64,000 nt of DNA from a virus. The position numbers and the translations under genes were made by a program. Position 1 is the stretch's first letter, and every line of letters begins with the position of its first letter. The notes under the pieces are model-generated. The model had not been told where the DNA came from. It saw only the letters and a program-made list of their open reading frames with translations, and ran no database searches. Shown here one piece after another: positions 1,103 through 40,894 of the stretch. The stretch lies in the IMG/VR virus record IMGVR_UViG_3300032770_000003, positions 96,001 to 160,000 of that record; one strand, given 5' to 3'.

Positions 1103-1578
1103 CAGATCTTGATCCGGCTGAAGGCGGGCGTGTACGCCTTGGCAATCATGTCTTCCGTCTCCTTGAAGACTTCCTCGTGAATGTCGTACGCCTCGAATCC
1201 CGGGTGCCACCAACTACTAGGAGGAGAGGTCTTGGACACCGTCCGGAATTCTCCGTCGTGCATGGGGATGACCCGGCTGGTGCGGTTCTTGAGCAGTCCA
1301 GGCTTCATGTCGAAACGCTGAGCACCGCTTTCCAGCGCCACCGGCAACCAACCTGAGAGGGTTGCTTCGACACCGTCTACATCCGCACGAACGATGAGCC
1401 CATCCATGTACTCGGTTAGGCTGGAATCCAGTACGCTCTGAGCCTTCTCTCGCCAGACGCGCTCCACCTCTTTGGCCAGCGCTGCCGAACCCTGCTTGTG
1501 AGCAGCCATCACCGCCTTCTCAATCTGAGAGGAAGATGGACCTTTGATCTCGATCCGGTATGTGTGAGCCGGAAGCAT
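1102..1578 (-). CDS. putative neck / tail-completion protein
   Basis: 158 aa; FDMKPGLL and WWHPG motifs typical of myophage neck-region proteins; tightly coupled in the operon. Confidence 0.55.
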   Translation of the reverse strand: MLPAHTYRIEIKGPSSSQIEKAVMAAHKQGSAALAKEVERVWREKAQSVLDSSLTEYMDGLIVRADVDGVEATLSGWLPVALESGAQRFDMKPGLLKNRTSRVIPMHDGEFRTVSKTSPPSSWWHPGFEAYDIHEEVFKETEDMIAKAYTPAFSRIKI

Positions 1579-2394
1579 TCAGCAGCTCACGCGCTTACTG
1601 AGCGGTATACGATCAGCCGACGTGATCAGAAGGCTGTCGTTCACGTAAGCGACGTGGCGCTTGCGGAGAAACACCAGGGGACCAAGATCGACGTTGTCGC
1701 GATCGACGCGCTCCTGAGGAGGAGCCCACACGAGCCACTCAAAGTACGCAGTGTACTTGACGACGTAGCGCTGACCGACCTGGGGGCGATTGCCGACCCA
1801 GCGGATCACGCGACCAGGGCCGAAGACGAAATCCCCATCTTCCAGGTACTGCTTACCGGTGTCGTCCTCGCACCACAGCGAGTAGACCGGTTCGTACCAG
1901 AGTCGATCCTCATCGGTTGTGAGCCCAGGCGACAACCGCAAGTTCTCGTCCATGGTGGCGGCCCCACGGACGATGGTCTGACCGTCGTTCAGCGGCTGAG
2001 CCCACGTGGCCGTGAACTTGTCGTCCAGGGCGACATGCCGCATCGGAGCGCCGTTGTGGTTGCAGCCGAAAAAGCCGGGCCCGATCGAAAACTGCATGTC
2101 GCCGGGCTGGTGGGTCCCGACGTCGATGACGTTGTTCTGTTGGCGGATCGAGGTAGCCAGTCCCCGGACCACGACAGGGTCTCGATAGAGCCAGCCGTCA
2201 CCGCCGCAACGCGGACAGTTAGGAGATCGGGTCTGATACTGACCGTCCCGGAGCAGGTTGGCCGAGACGTCAGCCGTGCGGCAGTGAGGGCACGCGACGC
2301 CGATCTCATGGATCATGTCGCTCCCGCGTTCCTCGATGAACCCCTCTTGGAGCCCCGGTTCGAACTCCACGCCAAGCCCCATCCTGCTAGGCAT
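1579..2394 (-). CDS. putative head-closure protein with Zn-binding CxxC pairs
   Basis: ACPHC...CPRCGGDGW motif and gene position as in SPO1/Twort-like head-completion genes. Confidence 0.6.
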   Translation of the reverse strand: MPSRMGLGVEFEPGLQEGFIEERGSDMIHEIGVACPHCRTADVSANLLRDGQYQTRSPNCPRCGGDGWLYRDPVVVRGLATSIRQQNNVIDVGTHQPGDMQFSIGPGFFGCNHNGAPMRHVALDDKFTATWAQPLNDGQTIVRGAATMDENLRLSPGLTTDEDRLWYEPVYSLWCEDDTGKQYLEDGDFVFGPGRVIRWVGNRPQVGQRYVVKYTAYFEWLVWAPPQERVDRDNVDLGPLVFLRKRHVAYVNDSLLITSADRIPLSKRVSC

Positions 2395-9498: not shown

Positions 9499-10638
9499 TT
9501 ATCGACCGCCACCCATGGAGGCGACGACCAGTGAACGCACCTGAGGAGACATCTCCCCCGTTGCGTCGAACTTGATGACGTCGAGTTGGTTCATCTGGCC
9601 CTTCTTGACCAGCTCGAACATCACATCAGTGATTTGCGCCTTGTTGATCTGGTCCGATCCGGTATCCAGACCACCAGGTCCGAACGACTTCTGGACGGGC
9701 TGAACACCCGCCGGAGCTGCGCCCTGACCACCGCCCGGCACCGAGCGAAGATGCGACTTGGGGCCACCCACCGGTGCGCCGGCAGCCGCCGCGTTCACCT
9801 CAGCACCGCCGACAAGCTGCTGGCCGATTCCGACCATTGCCTCAGCGAAGCCCTTGTTGAACGTGGTCTGCTCGCTCATGAAACCGCCCATGCCCTTCTC
9901 CAGGGCATCGATGCGGGTGGCGAGCTTGCCAACGGTGTCGTTCAGCGCCTTGTTGATGCGCGCAGCGGTGCGCGCCTCGACGCCTTCCAGAGCCTCGCCC
10001 ATGGCGCGGGCGAACTCGTAGAGCACCGGGGACATCTCGATGCCCTTCTTCAGGTTCTGGCTGTTGGCGATCGCGCCACCCAGCGACTTCTTGGTTGAGC
10101 CCGGGTTCGCATCGGGTTCGATCTCATCGTCGGTGTCGGCGCCTGCGCTCGTCTTGGGCGCCTTGCCGGCTCCCTCTTCGGTTCCAGAAGGGGGCGCCTT
10201 CTCGGGAGACGTCGACGCCTTGGCGGTACCCGACTTCTTGGTATCGTCGTCATCGTCGTCGTCATCGTCGTCGCCGTTCTTGCCGAACGGGAACCCCTTC
10301 TTCACAGCCCAAGACTCCGCCTGGGTCAGCTTCTGACCCTTGGCGATCTTGGTGCCGATGGCCTTGCGAGCGTCGGAGCGTGCTCCTCTCACAATGGCAA
10401 CCTCGGCTGGAGTCAGCGCCTTCGACTTCGCCACCTTGTTCGCCAGCGCCTTCTTGACGCCGTCGTAGTCAGTGCCGTTGTCGTCGATGCCGTCCGAGTG
10501 CTCGTCTTGGTCTGTCTGGCCTGTGCCAGCCCACGTGCCCGGATTCGAGTCGGACGGCGTGTGAAAGAGCTGGCTCTTCGCCAATCCTTCCAGCCTCGAC
10601 AGGGCAGCGTGGAACTCGTCGCGATTGATGGTGGACAT
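9499..10638 (-). CDS. putative capsid scaffolding protein
   Basis: Lies between protease and capsid gene; acidic and coiled-coil segments; many K-S/K-A sites. Confidence 0.7.
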   Translation of the reverse strand: MSTINRDEFHAALSRLEGLAKSQLFHTPSDSNPGTWAGTGQTDQDEHSDGIDDNGTDYDGVKKALANKVAKSKALTPAEVAIVRGARSDARKAIGTKIAKGQKLTQAESWAVKKGFPFGKNGDDDDDDDDDDTKKSGTAKASTSPEKAPPSGTEEGAGKAPKTSAGADTDDEIEPDANPGSTKKSLGGAIANSQNLKKGIEMSPVLYEFARAMGEALEGVEARTAARINKALNDTVGKLATRIDALEKGMGGFMSEQTTFNKGFAEAMVGIGQQLVGGAEVNAAAAGAPVGGPKSHLRSVPGGGQGAAPAGVQPVQKSFGPGGLDTGSDQINKAQITDVMFELVKKGQMNQLDVIKFDATGEMSPQVRSLVVASMGGGR

Positions 10639-10646
10639 GTCTCCTC

Positions 10647-12338
10647 CTAGTGAGTTCCAGCGATTGCTGTGAAGATGGCGTCAGCCAGGGCCTGCGCCAC
10701 GGGATAGCTGTAGCCCCGCCGGGCCTGCAGATAGCCGAGAGCCTCTTGATACGAGATCTTCTCTGCCTTCTTGATGTGGTGACCGGGGAACGTCTGAATC
10801 TTGGCGCTGCCTTCGAGCGACTGAGGTCGGAGCACGCCACCCATGCCACCGGCGGTGAGTGCCTTCTCCTCTTCCTCGGTCTTCGTGGGCGCTGCCATGG
10901 ACTTCAGCGCGGGGCCACAGGTACAGCACCCACCCTTGCAGACGTCGTCCCAGGGATGCAGGCACCACTTCTGCTTGCCCAGTGACTTGACGATCTCGGC
11001 CCAGGTGTTGGTGTTTACAGGAGAGTTGTGTGCTACAATCCCATTCGCCTCATACCACCCCAACGACGTATCGAGATTGTAAACATGGCCAGACCAATCG
11101 AACCGTCGCGAGCTAGCGAGATCGCTGAAGCCTATCGCTTGGGAGAGCGTCCGGCCGCTATCGCCGAACGTTACGGAATCACTCGTGAGGGAGTCTGGCT
11201 CATCGCCAAAAGACTCGGCGTACGGCGAGATCGCTCTGAAGGGCAAAAGCTCCGCTGGCAAAACGCCATTCCCGCTGAGCGCAAGAAGTGGGAAACCGAA
11301 GGGGCCAAGCATCTGCGAAAGCAGCCCATTCCCGAAGAAGCTCGGCACAAGATCGCGCAGTTTCGGGAGGAACACCTTACGCTTGTCGGCCGCGGCGAGC
11401 GCGTCCTTGCCGAACTTCTCAAAGAACGCGGAATCCAATCGGTACTGCAGAAGGCCGTCGGTCGATACAATATCGACGTTGCCGCCGCATCCGTCGCCGT
11501 GGAAATCTTTTTCACCAACCGTACAAACCCTGTGAAGGGAACGCGTCCGGGAGGAAATGCGCGCAAGTTCAAATACCTGCTCGAAAGTGGGTGGCACATT
11601 CTGTGCATCATGGGTTCCAATCGTCGACGCAATCGACGACCCGGCAGTTTTCGTCCAGCCGACCAGATCACGGTTGAAACGGCCGATGCGGTAGCGGCCT
11701 TTATCAAGCTGACCAAGCGGTACCCAACCATGATCCGTGAATATCGGGTGATTCGGTGTTCCGGTGAGCTTCTCACCAGTAGCCAGTACGATCTCAACCA
11801 TCTGGCCGGTGTACCAACGTCGGCTGACCTTTTTTGACGCACCACAGACGCGAACGTCGCCAGGGAAACAGGCAGTAATCGCCACATCCTGCAGCCAGCA
11901 CTTGGCGATGGTATTCCCCTCTCGCCGAAGCACCTTGCCCTGGATCGAGAAACCAACCTTCCGATTGGACTCGTTGGCTGCGAGCGCGGTGATGTGGTCC
12001 CACCAGTACTCAGCGCGCTCCTTGCCCTTATACAAAAACCCCTTCAACCAGAGCCCAGCCGGGGTGATCCGGCATTCCGCGGGTTCGCCGACCTTGTGCT
12101 CAGGGCCCTCTTTGTGGTCGTCGTTGATGTAGCCGTACTTGAGGAAGTAGCCGTAGTCGATCCCGTTCTGACGGACCACTTCACCCTGAAGGTCACGGTC
12201 ATCTGTGGACGCGACCCCTTGGATCCAGCGCTTGCCGTCCTTACTCTCAGCCTTGGAGATCTTCTCCACCGGCATGAAGAAGTGGAAGGTAGAACCGGTG
12301 CCCAGCAAACGGTCTTCTATACCGTCCACTAAGCGCAT
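10647..12338 (-). CDS. prohead protease interrupted by an intein
   Basis: GVASTDDRDLQGE, INDDH, GFSIQG and VAITA|SPVN motifs; GGAGG RBS before ATG 12338. Confidence 0.88.
   Translation of the reverse strand: MRLVDGIEDRLLGTGSTFHFFMPVEKISKAESKDGKRWIQGVASTDDRDLQGEVVRQNGIDYGYFLKYGYINDDHKEGPEHKVGEPAECRITPAGLWLKGFLYKGKERAEYWWDHITALAANESNRKVGFSIQGKVLRREGNTIAKCWLQDVAITACFPGDVRVCGASKKVSRRWYTGQMVEIVLATGEKLTGTPNHPIFTDHGWVPLGQLDKGRYRIGRFNRDLVGWTKTAGSSIASTIGTHDAQNVPPTFEQVFELARISSRTRSLHRVCTVGEKDFHGDGCGGNVDIVSTDGLLQYRLDSAFFEKFGKDALAAADKRKVFLPKLRDLVPSFFGNGLLSQMLGPFGFPLLALSGNGVLPAELLPFRAISPYAESFGDEPDSLTSDSVTFGDSGRTLSQAIGFSDLASSRRFDWSGHVYNLDTSLGWYEANGIVAHNSPVNTNTWAEIVKSLGKQKWCLHPWDDVCKGGCCTCGPALKSMAAPTKTEEEEKALTAGGMGGVLRPQSLEGSAKIQTFPGHHIKKAEKISYQEALGYLQARRGYSYPVAQALADAIFTAIAGTH
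11025..11870 (-). mobile_element. intein (282 aa) in prohead protease, no sense-strand endonuclease
   Basis: CFPGD N-terminus, GTPNHP block B, GHVYNL...GIVAHN|S C-terminus. Confidence 0.9.
11085..11837 (+). CDS. HTH + Vsr/DUF559-like PD-(D/E)xK endonuclease encoded antisense inside the intein
   Basis: HTH (AAIAERYGITREGV); E..LAELLKERGI..Q..VGRYNIDVA..VAVE; LLESGWHIL; paralog at 39863. Confidence 0.8.
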   Translation: MARPIEPSRASEIAEAYRLGERPAAIAERYGITREGVWLIAKRLGVRRDRSEGQKLRWQNAIPAERKKWETEGAKHLRKQPIPEEARHKIAQFREEHLTLVGRGERVLAELLKERGIQSVLQKAVGRYNIDVAAASVAVEIFFTNRTNPVKGTRPGGNARKFKYLLESGWHILCIMGSNRRRNRRPGSFRPADQITVETADAVAAFIKLTKRYPTMIREYRVIRCSGELLTSSQYDLNHLAGVPTSADLF

Positions 12339-12856
12339 GTCACGTGCCTCCATCTCTTCCCCTGAGTGATCAGAGCAATGGCGGAACGTGTGACATTCAG
12401 CCTAGTGGCGATCCAACTCTGGGATCGCCCCAACCTTCGCCAGTTCAATACTTGCTGAATATCCGCTTCAGAAAGCTTAGCGCTACCACGCGGATGAGCG
12501 GCGCCCTTTGGGGCATTGGTACGTCCCCACGCTACGCAATCAGCGCGATTCTGGCGGTGAGTACCCTCGCTCAGATGATCTGGATTCACACAGTGGCGGA
12601 CATCGCAAGCGTGTAACGTTTCCATCCCCGGTAAGAGCTGGCGGCCTAGCTTCTGTTCCAAAACCAGCCTGGCAGCGATACGCGGACGACCGTTGAACCA
12701 AAACCACGCACAACCTTTGTTGTTCCTTGCACCTGTCCAGAGATGGCAAGGCCCCAGCCCTGGACGAGCCTCAGGCCCATTCAGGTCAATGAACTTCCGG
12801 AACCGGAAGGTCTCGCCTTCACCAAGCAGCTGATCGTTGATCTCTGTGAGTCGCAT
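12329..12856 (-). CDS. HNH endonuclease (HNH_3-like) with C-terminal HTH
   Basis: CHLWTG...LHACDVRHCVNPDHLSEGT..QN; SQSWIATRLNVTRSAI. Confidence 0.85.
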   Translation of the reverse strand: MRLTEINDQLLGEGETFRFRKFIDLNGPEARPGLGPCHLWTGARNNKGCAWFWFNGRPRIAARLVLEQKLGRQLLPGMETLHACDVRHCVNPDHLSEGTHRQNRADCVAWGRTNAPKGAAHPRGSAKLSEADIQQVLNWRRLGRSQSWIATRLNVTRSAIALITQGKRWRHVTCA

Positions 12857-39481: not shown

Positions 39482-40894
39482 TCAGGCTGAGACGATCTGG
39501 TGATCGAGCCACTCACGCACTGCACGCAGATCCTCATAGACCTGCGTTCGCGCCGATGGATTACGCGCTATGTAAGCTGGATGATACGATACCCGAGTAG
39601 GTCCGAACGCTGTGTTGTGCCAGATGCCCCGTAGGGATGACAGCGGTGCGGTACTGAGAGTAGGAGCCAAGAGCGCTGTGGTGGCGACTCGCCCGAGTGC
39701 CACGACAGTGAGCGGCCGCACCAACTCCAGCTGACGCTCAAAGTACGGACGGCACGCCGCCAGCTCCGCGGGTGCCGGCTGACGATTCCGGGGTGGCCTG
39801 CAGTTGGATACTAACATCCCATCTGCTATATACTGCCCGCTTCTGGTCTGCAAATTGTAAACATGACCACTAAACCACTTCCTTTCGATCTTCAGGATCT
39901 TAGCCAGCGCTACTTGCGTGGCGCTGGATTGGAACCTTTGTCCCGGGAAGTTCATATTGGGCAAGCTACGCTCAAGAAGTTGTTCCTGAAAGCCGGTGTC
40001 GCGGTACGAGACCGCTCCGCCGCTATGAAGACCCGGCTGCGCCAGATGACACAAGAGCAACGAAAGGAACTCACTGAAGCTGCGCACGCAGCTTGTCACG
40101 GCCGTGTACGCCCTCTCGAAGAATCTCAGCGAATTGCCGAAGCGCGTGCTCGCCGCTTTCAGGAAACAAAAAAGGTGGTCGGATCCTTCGAAGATCTCTT
40201 GGTCAGTTGGATCAGACAGCGCGGGATTACTGTGACCCCGCAACAGCCTGTAAGGGGTTACAACCTCGATATTGGCATGTCCCCCGTCGCCGTGGAAGTT
40301 CACGTGGCTGTCAACCATCCATTTGCGGATGCCGACATCCGACAGCGTACGAAAAAGTTGATCGAACTTGGTTGGAGCGTGCTCTATGTCTGGATCACCA
40401 AAGCCCACCCTCTTCAGCACAGGGTAGTGGATGAGATCATCGCCTTCCAACAGGCGCGAAAGAGGAAGCCGCCCTCTGCTGGAAAATACCGGGTGGTTCG
40501 GGGTTCCGGAGAGGTCACCCTTCTCCGTATGGACCTTGAGTAACGGCCCCTCATACCATCGTCGATAGATCTTCTCGATCCCTGAAGCACACACCACAGT
40601 AGCTCCAGGAAAACACATCACTGGGTTAAGGATGTAGACCTGTTCCCGGGTGTAGCCCATCCAGGCGATGAACTCGTCGAGAATCGCACCCGCCCGGCCC
40701 ACGAACGGAAGGCCCGACAGATCCTCGTTCTGTCCAGGCGCCTCACCAACGAACGCGACTGGCGGGCGAGCGACATTCCCAGTGCCGAATACGACCTTGG
40801 TCCGCCCGCCCGCCAGTGGACACTTCGTGCAAGTCGAAGCCTCAGACCGGAGCGCGACCAACGCATCGATCTGCGCCGGTGTGCCCGGTTCCAT
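39482..40894 (-). CDS. family-4 uracil-DNA glycosylase interrupted by an intein
   Basis: CTKCPL, VGEAPG, FVGRAG, CRPP, YHPAY. Confidence 0.9.
   Translation of the reverse strand: MEPGTPAQIDALVALRSEASTCTKCPLAGGRTKVVFGTGNVARPPVAFVGEAPGQNEDLSGLPFVGRAGAILDEFIAWMGYTREQVYILNPVMCFPGATVVCASGIEKIYRRWYEGPLLKVHTEKGDLSGTPNHPVFSSRGRLPLSRLLEGDDLIHYPVLKRVGFGDPDIEHAPTKFDQLFRTLSDVGIRKWMVDSHVNFHGDGGHANIEVVTPYRLLRGHSNPALSDPTDQEIFEGSDHLFCFLKAASTRFGNSLRFFERAYTAVTSCVRSFSEFLSLLLCHLAQPGLHSGGAVSYRDTGFQEQLLERSLPNMNFPGQRFQSSATQVALAKILKIERKWFSGHVYNLQTRSGQYIADGMLVSNCRPPRNRQPAPAELAACRPYFERQLELVRPLTVVALGRVATTALLAPTLSTAPLSSLRGIWHNTAFGPTRVSYHPAYIARNPSARTQVYEDLRAVREWLDHQIVSA
39803..40615 (-). mobile_element. intein (271 aa) in UDG, no sense-strand endonuclease
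   Basis: CFPGA start, GTPNHP, GHVYNL...GMLVSN|C end. Confidence 0.9.
39863..40543 (+). CDS. HTH + Vsr/DUF559-like PD-(D/E)xK endonuclease encoded antisense inside the intein
   Basis: RDRS; E.LL..WIRQRGI...Q.PVRGYNLDIG..PVAVE; LIELGWSVL; YRVVRGSGE; paralog of 11085. Confidence 0.8.
   Translation: MTTKPLPFDLQDLSQRYLRGAGLEPLSREVHIGQATLKKLFLKAGVAVRDRSAAMKTRLRQMTQEQRKELTEAAHAACHGRVRPLEESQRIAEARARRFQETKKVVGSFEDLLVSWIRQRGITVTPQQPVRGYNLDIGMSPVAVEVHVAVNHPFADADIRQRTKKLIELGWSVLYVWITKAHPLQHRVVDEIIAFQQARKRKPPSAGKYRVVRGSGEVTLLRMDLE

Follow-up and report, generated by a model that had tools for sequence, protein, structure and literature searches.

An intein in a phage prohead protease gene with a putative Vsr-like homing endonuclease gene on its opposite strand

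INTRODUCTION

Anti-sense VSR-like homing endonucleases (HENs) encoded in full inteins have been described in actinobacteriophages by Gosselin, Arsenault and Gogarten (bioRxiv 10.1101/2025.01.02.630785, October 2025 version). Here we analyze an element of the same architecture in a window of 64,000 nucleotides (positions 96,001 to 160,000 of IMG/VR record IMGVR_UViG_3300032770_000003, a metagenomic phage record of 171,494 bases estimated to be ~96% complete). The element is an intein in the gene for the prohead (capsid maturation) protease, and its opposite strand carries an open reading frame (ORF) for a helix-turn-helix (HTH) protein with a predicted Vsr-like nuclease fold. A preliminary description of this locus, made from the sequence without database searches, supposed that the architecture had not been described. 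The preprint shows otherwise, and the basic architecture is not new. As in the preprint, the intein is contiguous, a complete ORF lies inside it on the opposite strand, the product is Vsr-like, and the same two structures (1CW0 and 3R3P) are matched. Whereas the cases in the preprint come from actinobacteriophages, the host genes here are a prohead protease gene and a UDG-family gene of a 171-kb metagenomic phage, and relatives occur in phages of Salmonella, Escherichia, Pseudomonas, Aggregatibacter and Vibrio. The text of the preprint makes no mention of a promoter, ribosome binding, a start codon, a protease or a glycosylase. New with respect to the literature are the host genes, the spread far beyond actinophages, the integrity of the antisense frame in 80 of 80 loci, the switch of selection between the strands and the candidate expression signals in intein blocks F and G.

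The nuclease is related to I-Bth0305I and to Vsr-like homing endonucleases of the EDxHD family (Dassa et al. 2009, PMC2677866; Taylor et al. 2011, PMC3239194). It shares with I-Bth0305I the nuclease fold, the helix Glu and the Mg-binding Asp (E105 and D131 here), a modular N-terminal DNA-binding part and the association with self-splicing elements in phage genes. However, I-Bth0305I is encoded by a group I intron and has NUMOD motifs, whereas the protein described here has an HTH and lacks the motif His, and its gene is overprinted, in antisense, on an intein that is translated. "Fractured genes," mostly in phages, contain a free-standing Vsr-like homing endonuclease gene between the halves of a split intein (Dassa et al. 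2009, PMC2677866). The nuclease superfamily and its place between the N- and C-terminal splicing lobes are the same as here, but in our case the host ORF is continuous and the strand opposite to it carries the endonuclease gene. Antisense LAGLIDADG HENs in inteins, as cited in the preprint (Gorbalenya 1998; Gogarten et al. 2002), likewise place the nuclease on the opposite strand and, according to that citation, differ in the nuclease family. Canonical large inteins with an in-frame LAGLIDADG or HNH nuclease, such as PI-SceI and PI-PfuI, also combine a splicing domain and a nuclease in one mobile unit at a conserved site of an essential gene. Their nuclease belongs to the one polypeptide as a domain and is produced only upon translation of the host gene; here it would be a separate product with separate signals.

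RESULTS

The prohead protease gene contains a class-1 intein

The exteins belong to a phage prohead protease with the T4 gp21/herpesvirus assemblin fold. Residues 22 to 161 match phrog_1028, a head maturation protease, in a profile search (E 2.7e-44), and the extein part of an AlphaFold2 (AF2) model resembles 5jbl, the capsid assembly protease gp21 of T4 (E 1.2e-4, probability 1.00). The closest extein relatives share 56 to 66% identity over the N-extein and are just 313 to 358 amino acids long. Six intein-less homologues cross the insertion site uninterrupted, reading AITA(A/S)PINTNTW or AITPAPVN; hence, empty protease alleles exist, and the bounds of the insert, A161|C162...N443|S444, are exact. 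The nearest protease relatives are empty, and intein-bearing proteases are more distant.

The coordinates of the intein and of the other features are given in Table 1. The preliminary description had read a 282-residue intein with the motifs CFPGD, GTPNHP, GHVYNL and AHN|S, and all of these are present: CFPGD at C1 (C162), T199-P-N-H202, GHVYNL and H442-N443, followed by S444. Across 28 sense homologues T199, P200, H202 and P203 are unchanged, and the class-1 splicing residues (nucleophile, T-x-x-H, His-Asn and +1) are invariant or nearly so. The two splicing lobes are predicted to adopt the HINT fold, and their model matches RecA, RadA and DnaB inteins in Foldseek with a probability of 0.99 to 1.00 and an E-value of only ~1e-2; the match to Pfam Intein_splicing (PF14890) is weak (E 0.003, under the cut-off). 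The host ORF is single and runs through the intein without being broken into split halves. The intact C1, T-x-x-H, H-N and +1 Ser and the essential nature of the host gene suggest that the precursor undergoes protein splicing.

Table 1. Coordinates of the features at the protease locus and at the second locus of the same type
Feature	Coordinates	Strand	Details	Basis
Prohead (capsid maturation) protease precursor gene	10647..12353	-	568 codons + stop, intein-interrupted	ORF reading
Class-1 intein	11025..11870	-	282 aa, C162 to N443, +1 residue S444	motifs, insert vs intein-less alleles, model
Intein block B	11745..11759	-	TPNHP (T199, H202)	sequence
Intein block F	11073..11090	-	GHVYNL	sequence
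Intein block G	11025..11045	-	NGIVAHN	sequence
Antisense gene, HTH + Vsr-like nuclease (putative homing endonuclease)	11085..11837	+	250 codons + TGA; open frame from 11028	
N-terminal HTH DNA-binding module (predicted)	11085..11219	+	residues 1-45	
Nuclease core (predicted)	11379..11786	+	residues 99-234; family-invariant E105, N129, D131, A138, E140	
Terminator-like hairpin + T-run, 3' end of antisense ORF	11803..11836	+	weak	pattern scan
Second intein of the same type	39803..40615	-	in UDG-family gene 39482-40894	record search, ORFs
Second antisense HTH/Vsr-like ORF	39863..40543	+	226 aa, intact; 31% identity to first	

The opposite strand encodes a predicted Vsr-like nuclease

The antisense ORF lies wholly within the contiguous intein. 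The first base of each plus-strand codon and the lowest-numbered base of each minus-strand codon fall on multiples of 3; the triplets of the two strands therefore coincide exactly, and both frames are open, as had been noted before. The antisense strand contains the motifs VGRYNIDVA, VAVEI and LLESGW. The FHGD and VDIV motifs of the intein frame are the complement of VAVE and YNID of the nuclease, which bears out the earlier view of the former as a reverse-complement shadow, and the complement of block B is the C-terminal motif YRVIRCSG (YRVIRxSG) of the antisense protein. The conservation of FHGD/VDIV is driven by the nuclease core, and that of YRVIRxSG by intein block B.

The HTH and Vsr-type PD-(D/E)xK core proposed in the preliminary description agree with structure prediction. 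The AF2 model of the antisense protein, made with an alignment of 42 sequences, has a mean pLDDT (predicted local distance difference test score) of 88.5 and a predicted template modeling score of 0.75, and the predicted fold is of the Vsr-type PD-(D/E)xK-like kind. Kinship to I-Bth0305I becomes visible only via the family profile, not with the single antisense sequence: the profile matches the group-I-intron-encoded 3r3p_A with an E-value of 1.7e-4 over 82 positions, and D131 aligns to the position of the catalytic Asp196 of 3r3p. E105 and D131 are invariant in the 42 aligned sequences, E140 and N129 are likewise family-invariant, and 27 of the 42 relatives match Pfam MTES_1575 (MTES_1575/DUF559, Vsr-like restriction endonuclease domains) with E<=0.01.

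The nuclease family comprises 1262 relatives or clusters at E<=1e-3 in a library clustered at 50% identity. It splits into a majority that carries GGxxH and a His-less minority with a conserved Pro ~8 residues later; the minority takes in the relatives of both copies present in this phage, the antisense protein of the protease intein included, and may have a different catalytic arrangement. One protein of 2159 amino acids matches the nuclease core in 23 separate stretches, the best of which corresponds to residues 139 to 182; repeats may have produced these matches artificially, or the protein may contain a tandem array.

The antisense frame is intact in all loci collected and is the selected frame in the center of the intein

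In GC-rich DNA the codon register seen here is the register in which shadow ORFs arise, since its stop codons are the complements of TTA, CTA and TCA. The antisense frame is open because these three sense codons are avoided. Given the codon usage of the exteins, the chance that the intein avoids them is 1.8e-3 at our locus and ranges from 1e-1 to 1e-11 in 16 other loci; for Aaphi23, with a GC content of 0.42, the chance of such an open run is 3e-10. To remove ascertainment bias, the relatives for the integrity test were gathered by the sense frame alone. The antisense frame was open in 9 of 9 phage and IMG/VR loci collected first and in all 80 further IMG/VR loci, with GC contents from 0.40 to 0.72. 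Each of these 80 loci has an in-register antisense run of 236 to 370 codons and a match to the nuclease hidden Markov model with E<=7e-44. Frequent antisense stops in homologous inteins, which the preliminary description had named as evidence that would speak against a second gene, were thus found in none of the 80.

All homologues first found with the antisense protein lie antisense to an intein. One of them had been taken as free-standing, with no overlapping gene called, and its DNA placed it, too, opposite an intein within a MuF-like gene. We met no free-standing member of the close nuclease family, although no dedicated further search was made.

In the AF2 model of the sense frame the protease and the splicing lobes have pLDDT values of 77 to 88, the splicing lobes alone 77 to 85, whereas residues 323 to 402 reach only 26 to 40 and other gaps occur in the center; residues 293 to 322 are predicted with moderate confidence (~70 to 79). 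No nuclease fold was seen in this model or among its structural matches; had there been one, it would have counted against an antisense nuclease gene. The sense peptide between the splicing lobes is predicted to be mostly disordered and is probably a largely unstructured linker.

We then compared the strands by counting codon changes that leave the amino acid unaltered on just one of the two. In the Jersey-like phages (first of six pairs), sense-only synonymous changes outnumber antisense-only ones in the N-extein (93 to 6), the C-extein (44 to 1) and the last splicing block (4 to 0), and the ratio reverses in intein residues 61 to 250 (16 to 54). The protease clade of our locus (5 loci, 10 pairs) gave 185 sense-only and 19 antisense-only changes in the N-extein, 162 and 39 in intein residues 1 to 55, and 66 and 3 in the last 20 residues, as opposed to 193 and 350 in the center of the intein. 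This switch indicates that purifying selection maintains the sense frame where the splicing ends are encoded and the antisense frame in the center, so that the expectation that selection would favor the antisense frame was confirmed in two data sets. Two measures were uninformative: the divergence between the window and loci L001 and L002 alone is too high for a sharp strand test, and GC content by codon position does not separate the strands inside the intein (0.64 at sense position 3, 0.60 at position 1). We conclude that the antisense ORF is a real, selected gene and not a shadow of high GC content.

Codon biases suggest expression signals in blocks F and G

The ATG of the antisense gene (11085-11087) is complementary to CAT, the codon of the block F residue His423. 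Among 64 distinct relatives this His is encoded by CAT in 51 and CAC in 13, corresponding to antisense ATG or GTG, whereas CAT makes up 29% in the exteins (Fisher p 1e-14). The Leu of H-V-Y-N-L is encoded by CTC, antisense GAG, in 44 of 60 cases, compared with 32% elsewhere (p 1e-10), and GGAG, GAGG or AGGA stands at Shine-Dalgarno (SD) distance in 40 of the 64 loci.

The complement of block G carries an extended -10-like box, TGCTACAAT, at 11031-11039 on the plus strand. Read on the other strand, the codons of G-I-(I/V)-(A/T)-H-N give GTG-TG(C/T)-TA(T/C)AAT, and TGn followed by TA(T/C)AAT recurs at this position in relatives. Of 91 Ile codons there, 65 are ATT or ATA, versus 34% in exteins. 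In 50 of 64 loci a -10-like hexamer is found at most 90 nucleotides (nt) from the start, compared with 19.6 expected from synonymous reshuffling, and its position peaks at 50 to 59 nt upstream of the ATG. The reading as an extended -10 box comes from this comparison across loci and not from a sigma-70 scan. From these codon biases we infer that blocks F and G may contain embedded expression signals for the antisense gene.

The antisense stop codon mostly falls at intein residues 2 to 26 (residue 12 at our locus). Since it is within the intein, the promoter-like box, the SD-like signal, the ORF and its stop are all inside the mobile unit. As for the weak terminator-like hairpin at the 3' end of the antisense ORF, the regional count of such hairpins is not above chance and no conservation was seen elsewhere.

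A second copy, the spread of the family and its annotation

The same phage contains a second intein of this type in a gene that matches Pfam UDG (E 5e-28). The antisense ORF of this copy matches Pfam MTES_1575 with an E-value of 1.8e-5 and 25.1 bits, below the curated cut-off of 38.2. A TGCTATATA box is located 31 to 39 nt before the ATG of the second ORF, and TTGGAT lies 17 nt upstream of that box.

The intein type occurs in genes for MuF-like, portal, terminase, UDG, lysozyme, polymerase-exonuclease and protease proteins. It is present in cultured phages of Salmonella, Escherichia, Pseudomonas, Gordonia, Mycobacterium, Aggregatibacter, Vibrio, Pantoea and Edwardsiella and in more than 550 loci in IMG/VR. 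In the records of these cultured phages the antisense gene is almost never annotated. A rare case is Salmonella phage PK2, in which the antisense ORF (1204-2013, minus strand) is annotated as "hypothetical protein" and overlaps a head morphogenesis gene; a nested, shorter coding sequence is annotated as well. At other loci (L003, 1959-3524 on the minus strand, as well as L001 and L002), gene prediction reports the antisense ORF and leaves the host gene with the intein in pieces or omits it, and as a result the nuclease appears in public protein sets like a free-standing protein. The JGI name for one of these antisense ORFs is very-short-patch-repair endonuclease.

Genes next to the protease gene

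Directly upstream of the protease gene is a free-standing HNH_3 homing-endonuclease-like ORF of 175 amino acids (12329-12856, minus strand; Pfam E 6.9e-7, above the cut-off), the end of which overlaps the protease start by ~25 nt. Just downstream, a 379-residue ORF (9499-10638, minus strand) has an acidic poly-Asp run and an Ala/Gly-rich low-complexity tail. It has no Pfam match, and its position suggests a scaffold protein.

DISCUSSION

We consider it highly probable that the locus is a bidirectional selfish element, with an intein on the minus strand and a separate gene for an HTH protein with a Vsr/I-Bth0305I-like homing nuclease on the plus strand. We hypothesize that the intein is translated within the precursor of the late prohead protease and then splices itself out, while the antisense gene would use its own signals written in the codons of the intein, with the start in the block F His, an SD-like GAG in the Leu and the extended -10-like box in block G. 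The nuclease would then be expressed separately from the host gene and most likely cut intein-less protease alleles near the AITA|SPVN junction, and recombinational repair would copy the intein and the nuclease gene together (homing). The empty state of the nearest protease relatives and the presence of the element in many unrelated genes both point to mobility.

Several observations weigh against this interpretation. The SD-like signal in the window is just GAG(A) at 11073-11076, of which GAG (11073-11075) comes from the Leu CTC, and a generic sigma-70 scan of positions 10600 to 12400 found no -35/-10 pair. The pairs in our own protease clade are near saturation, and the strand flip is weaker there than in the Jersey-like set. 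The antisense protein alone matches no Pfam family and has no significant sequence match in the PDB. The EDxHD-motif His, which ~3/4 of the aligned relatives keep (consensus GGxxH after the E-strand), is also missing from it: the sequence there is VAVEIFFTNRTNP, and residues 141 to 169 contain no His. No conserved Asp column was found at the place of the second Asp of the motif, where the alignment is loose. Because of the missing His, catalytic competence is less certain than the fold suggests, and we file the protein, by its sequence, as Vsr-like and EDxHD-related rather than as a strict member of the motif family.

Could the antisense protein be real and selected but not, or no longer, a homing endonuclease? 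Its role might be that of a regulator that binds DNA, of a nickase or maturase-like helper, or of a nuclease directed against competing phages. The His that is absent is the general base of Vsr and I-Bth0305I (PMC3239194), a minority subfamily shares the loss, and some inteins with VSR-like HENs look vertically inherited (bioRxiv 10.1101/2025.01.02.630785). However, E105, D131 and E140 are invariant in the family, the entire gene and its signals are nested inside the mobile unit, and an intein type found in many unrelated host genes alongside empty nearest alleles of the protease is the pattern that homing predicts. We therefore regard this alternative as unlikely.

Two further explanations deny the plus-strand frame its role, and both are very improbable. 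According to one, the plus-strand ORF does not code for a protein and only shadows the intein frame, being open because TTA, CTA and TCA are rare in a GC-rich genome, and its family mirrors conserved intein residues. The register is indeed the one most prone to shadow ORFs, the GC content of the window is 0.60, third-position GC is uninformative inside the intein, and the antisense YRVIRxSG truly mirrors block B. The data already contradict this explanation: in 80 of 80 loci, down to a GC content of 0.40, the frame is open, the open run of Aaphi23 is not a likely product of chance, central substitutions are antisense-synonymous, the product has a confident predicted fold and matches proteins that are not encoded by inteins, and the start and SD codons are biased. 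According to the other, the center of the sense frame is itself a functional in-frame domain, a new intein endonuclease with the motif FHGD...VDIV, and antisense conservation is secondary. In line with this, F284, H285, G286, D287 and V293 are invariant in the 28 sense homologues, and the sense model is moderately confident at residues 293 to 322. Yet the residues of this motif are the exact complement of the nuclease core, most of the sense center has pLDDT values <40, the matches of the sense model include no nuclease fold, and sense-nonsynonymous changes dominate the center.

A broader proposal, extending the bidirectional reading to the whole family, has in our judgment about an even chance of being correct. 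The family would be obligately dual-coding and self-contained, with blocks F and G doubling as promoter, SD and start, and the nuclease would be made independently of, and possibly before, the late host gene. Such inteins would never occur without the antisense gene, at all GC contents and in many hosts, far beyond actinophages.

In summary, the two strands of a stretch of ~750 bp each code for a protein, with both sets of codons in one register, and selection passes from one strand to the other over the length of the element. Annotation pipelines overlook the nuclease gene or break up the host gene, and a large family of homing endonucleases in phages has thereby been left without annotation. 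If the proposed mechanism is true, a nuclease expressed on its own would no longer be tied to when, and in what amounts, the host protein is made; this bears on how inteins gain and retain nucleases. Moreover, these nucleases could be a source of new site-specific enzymes.

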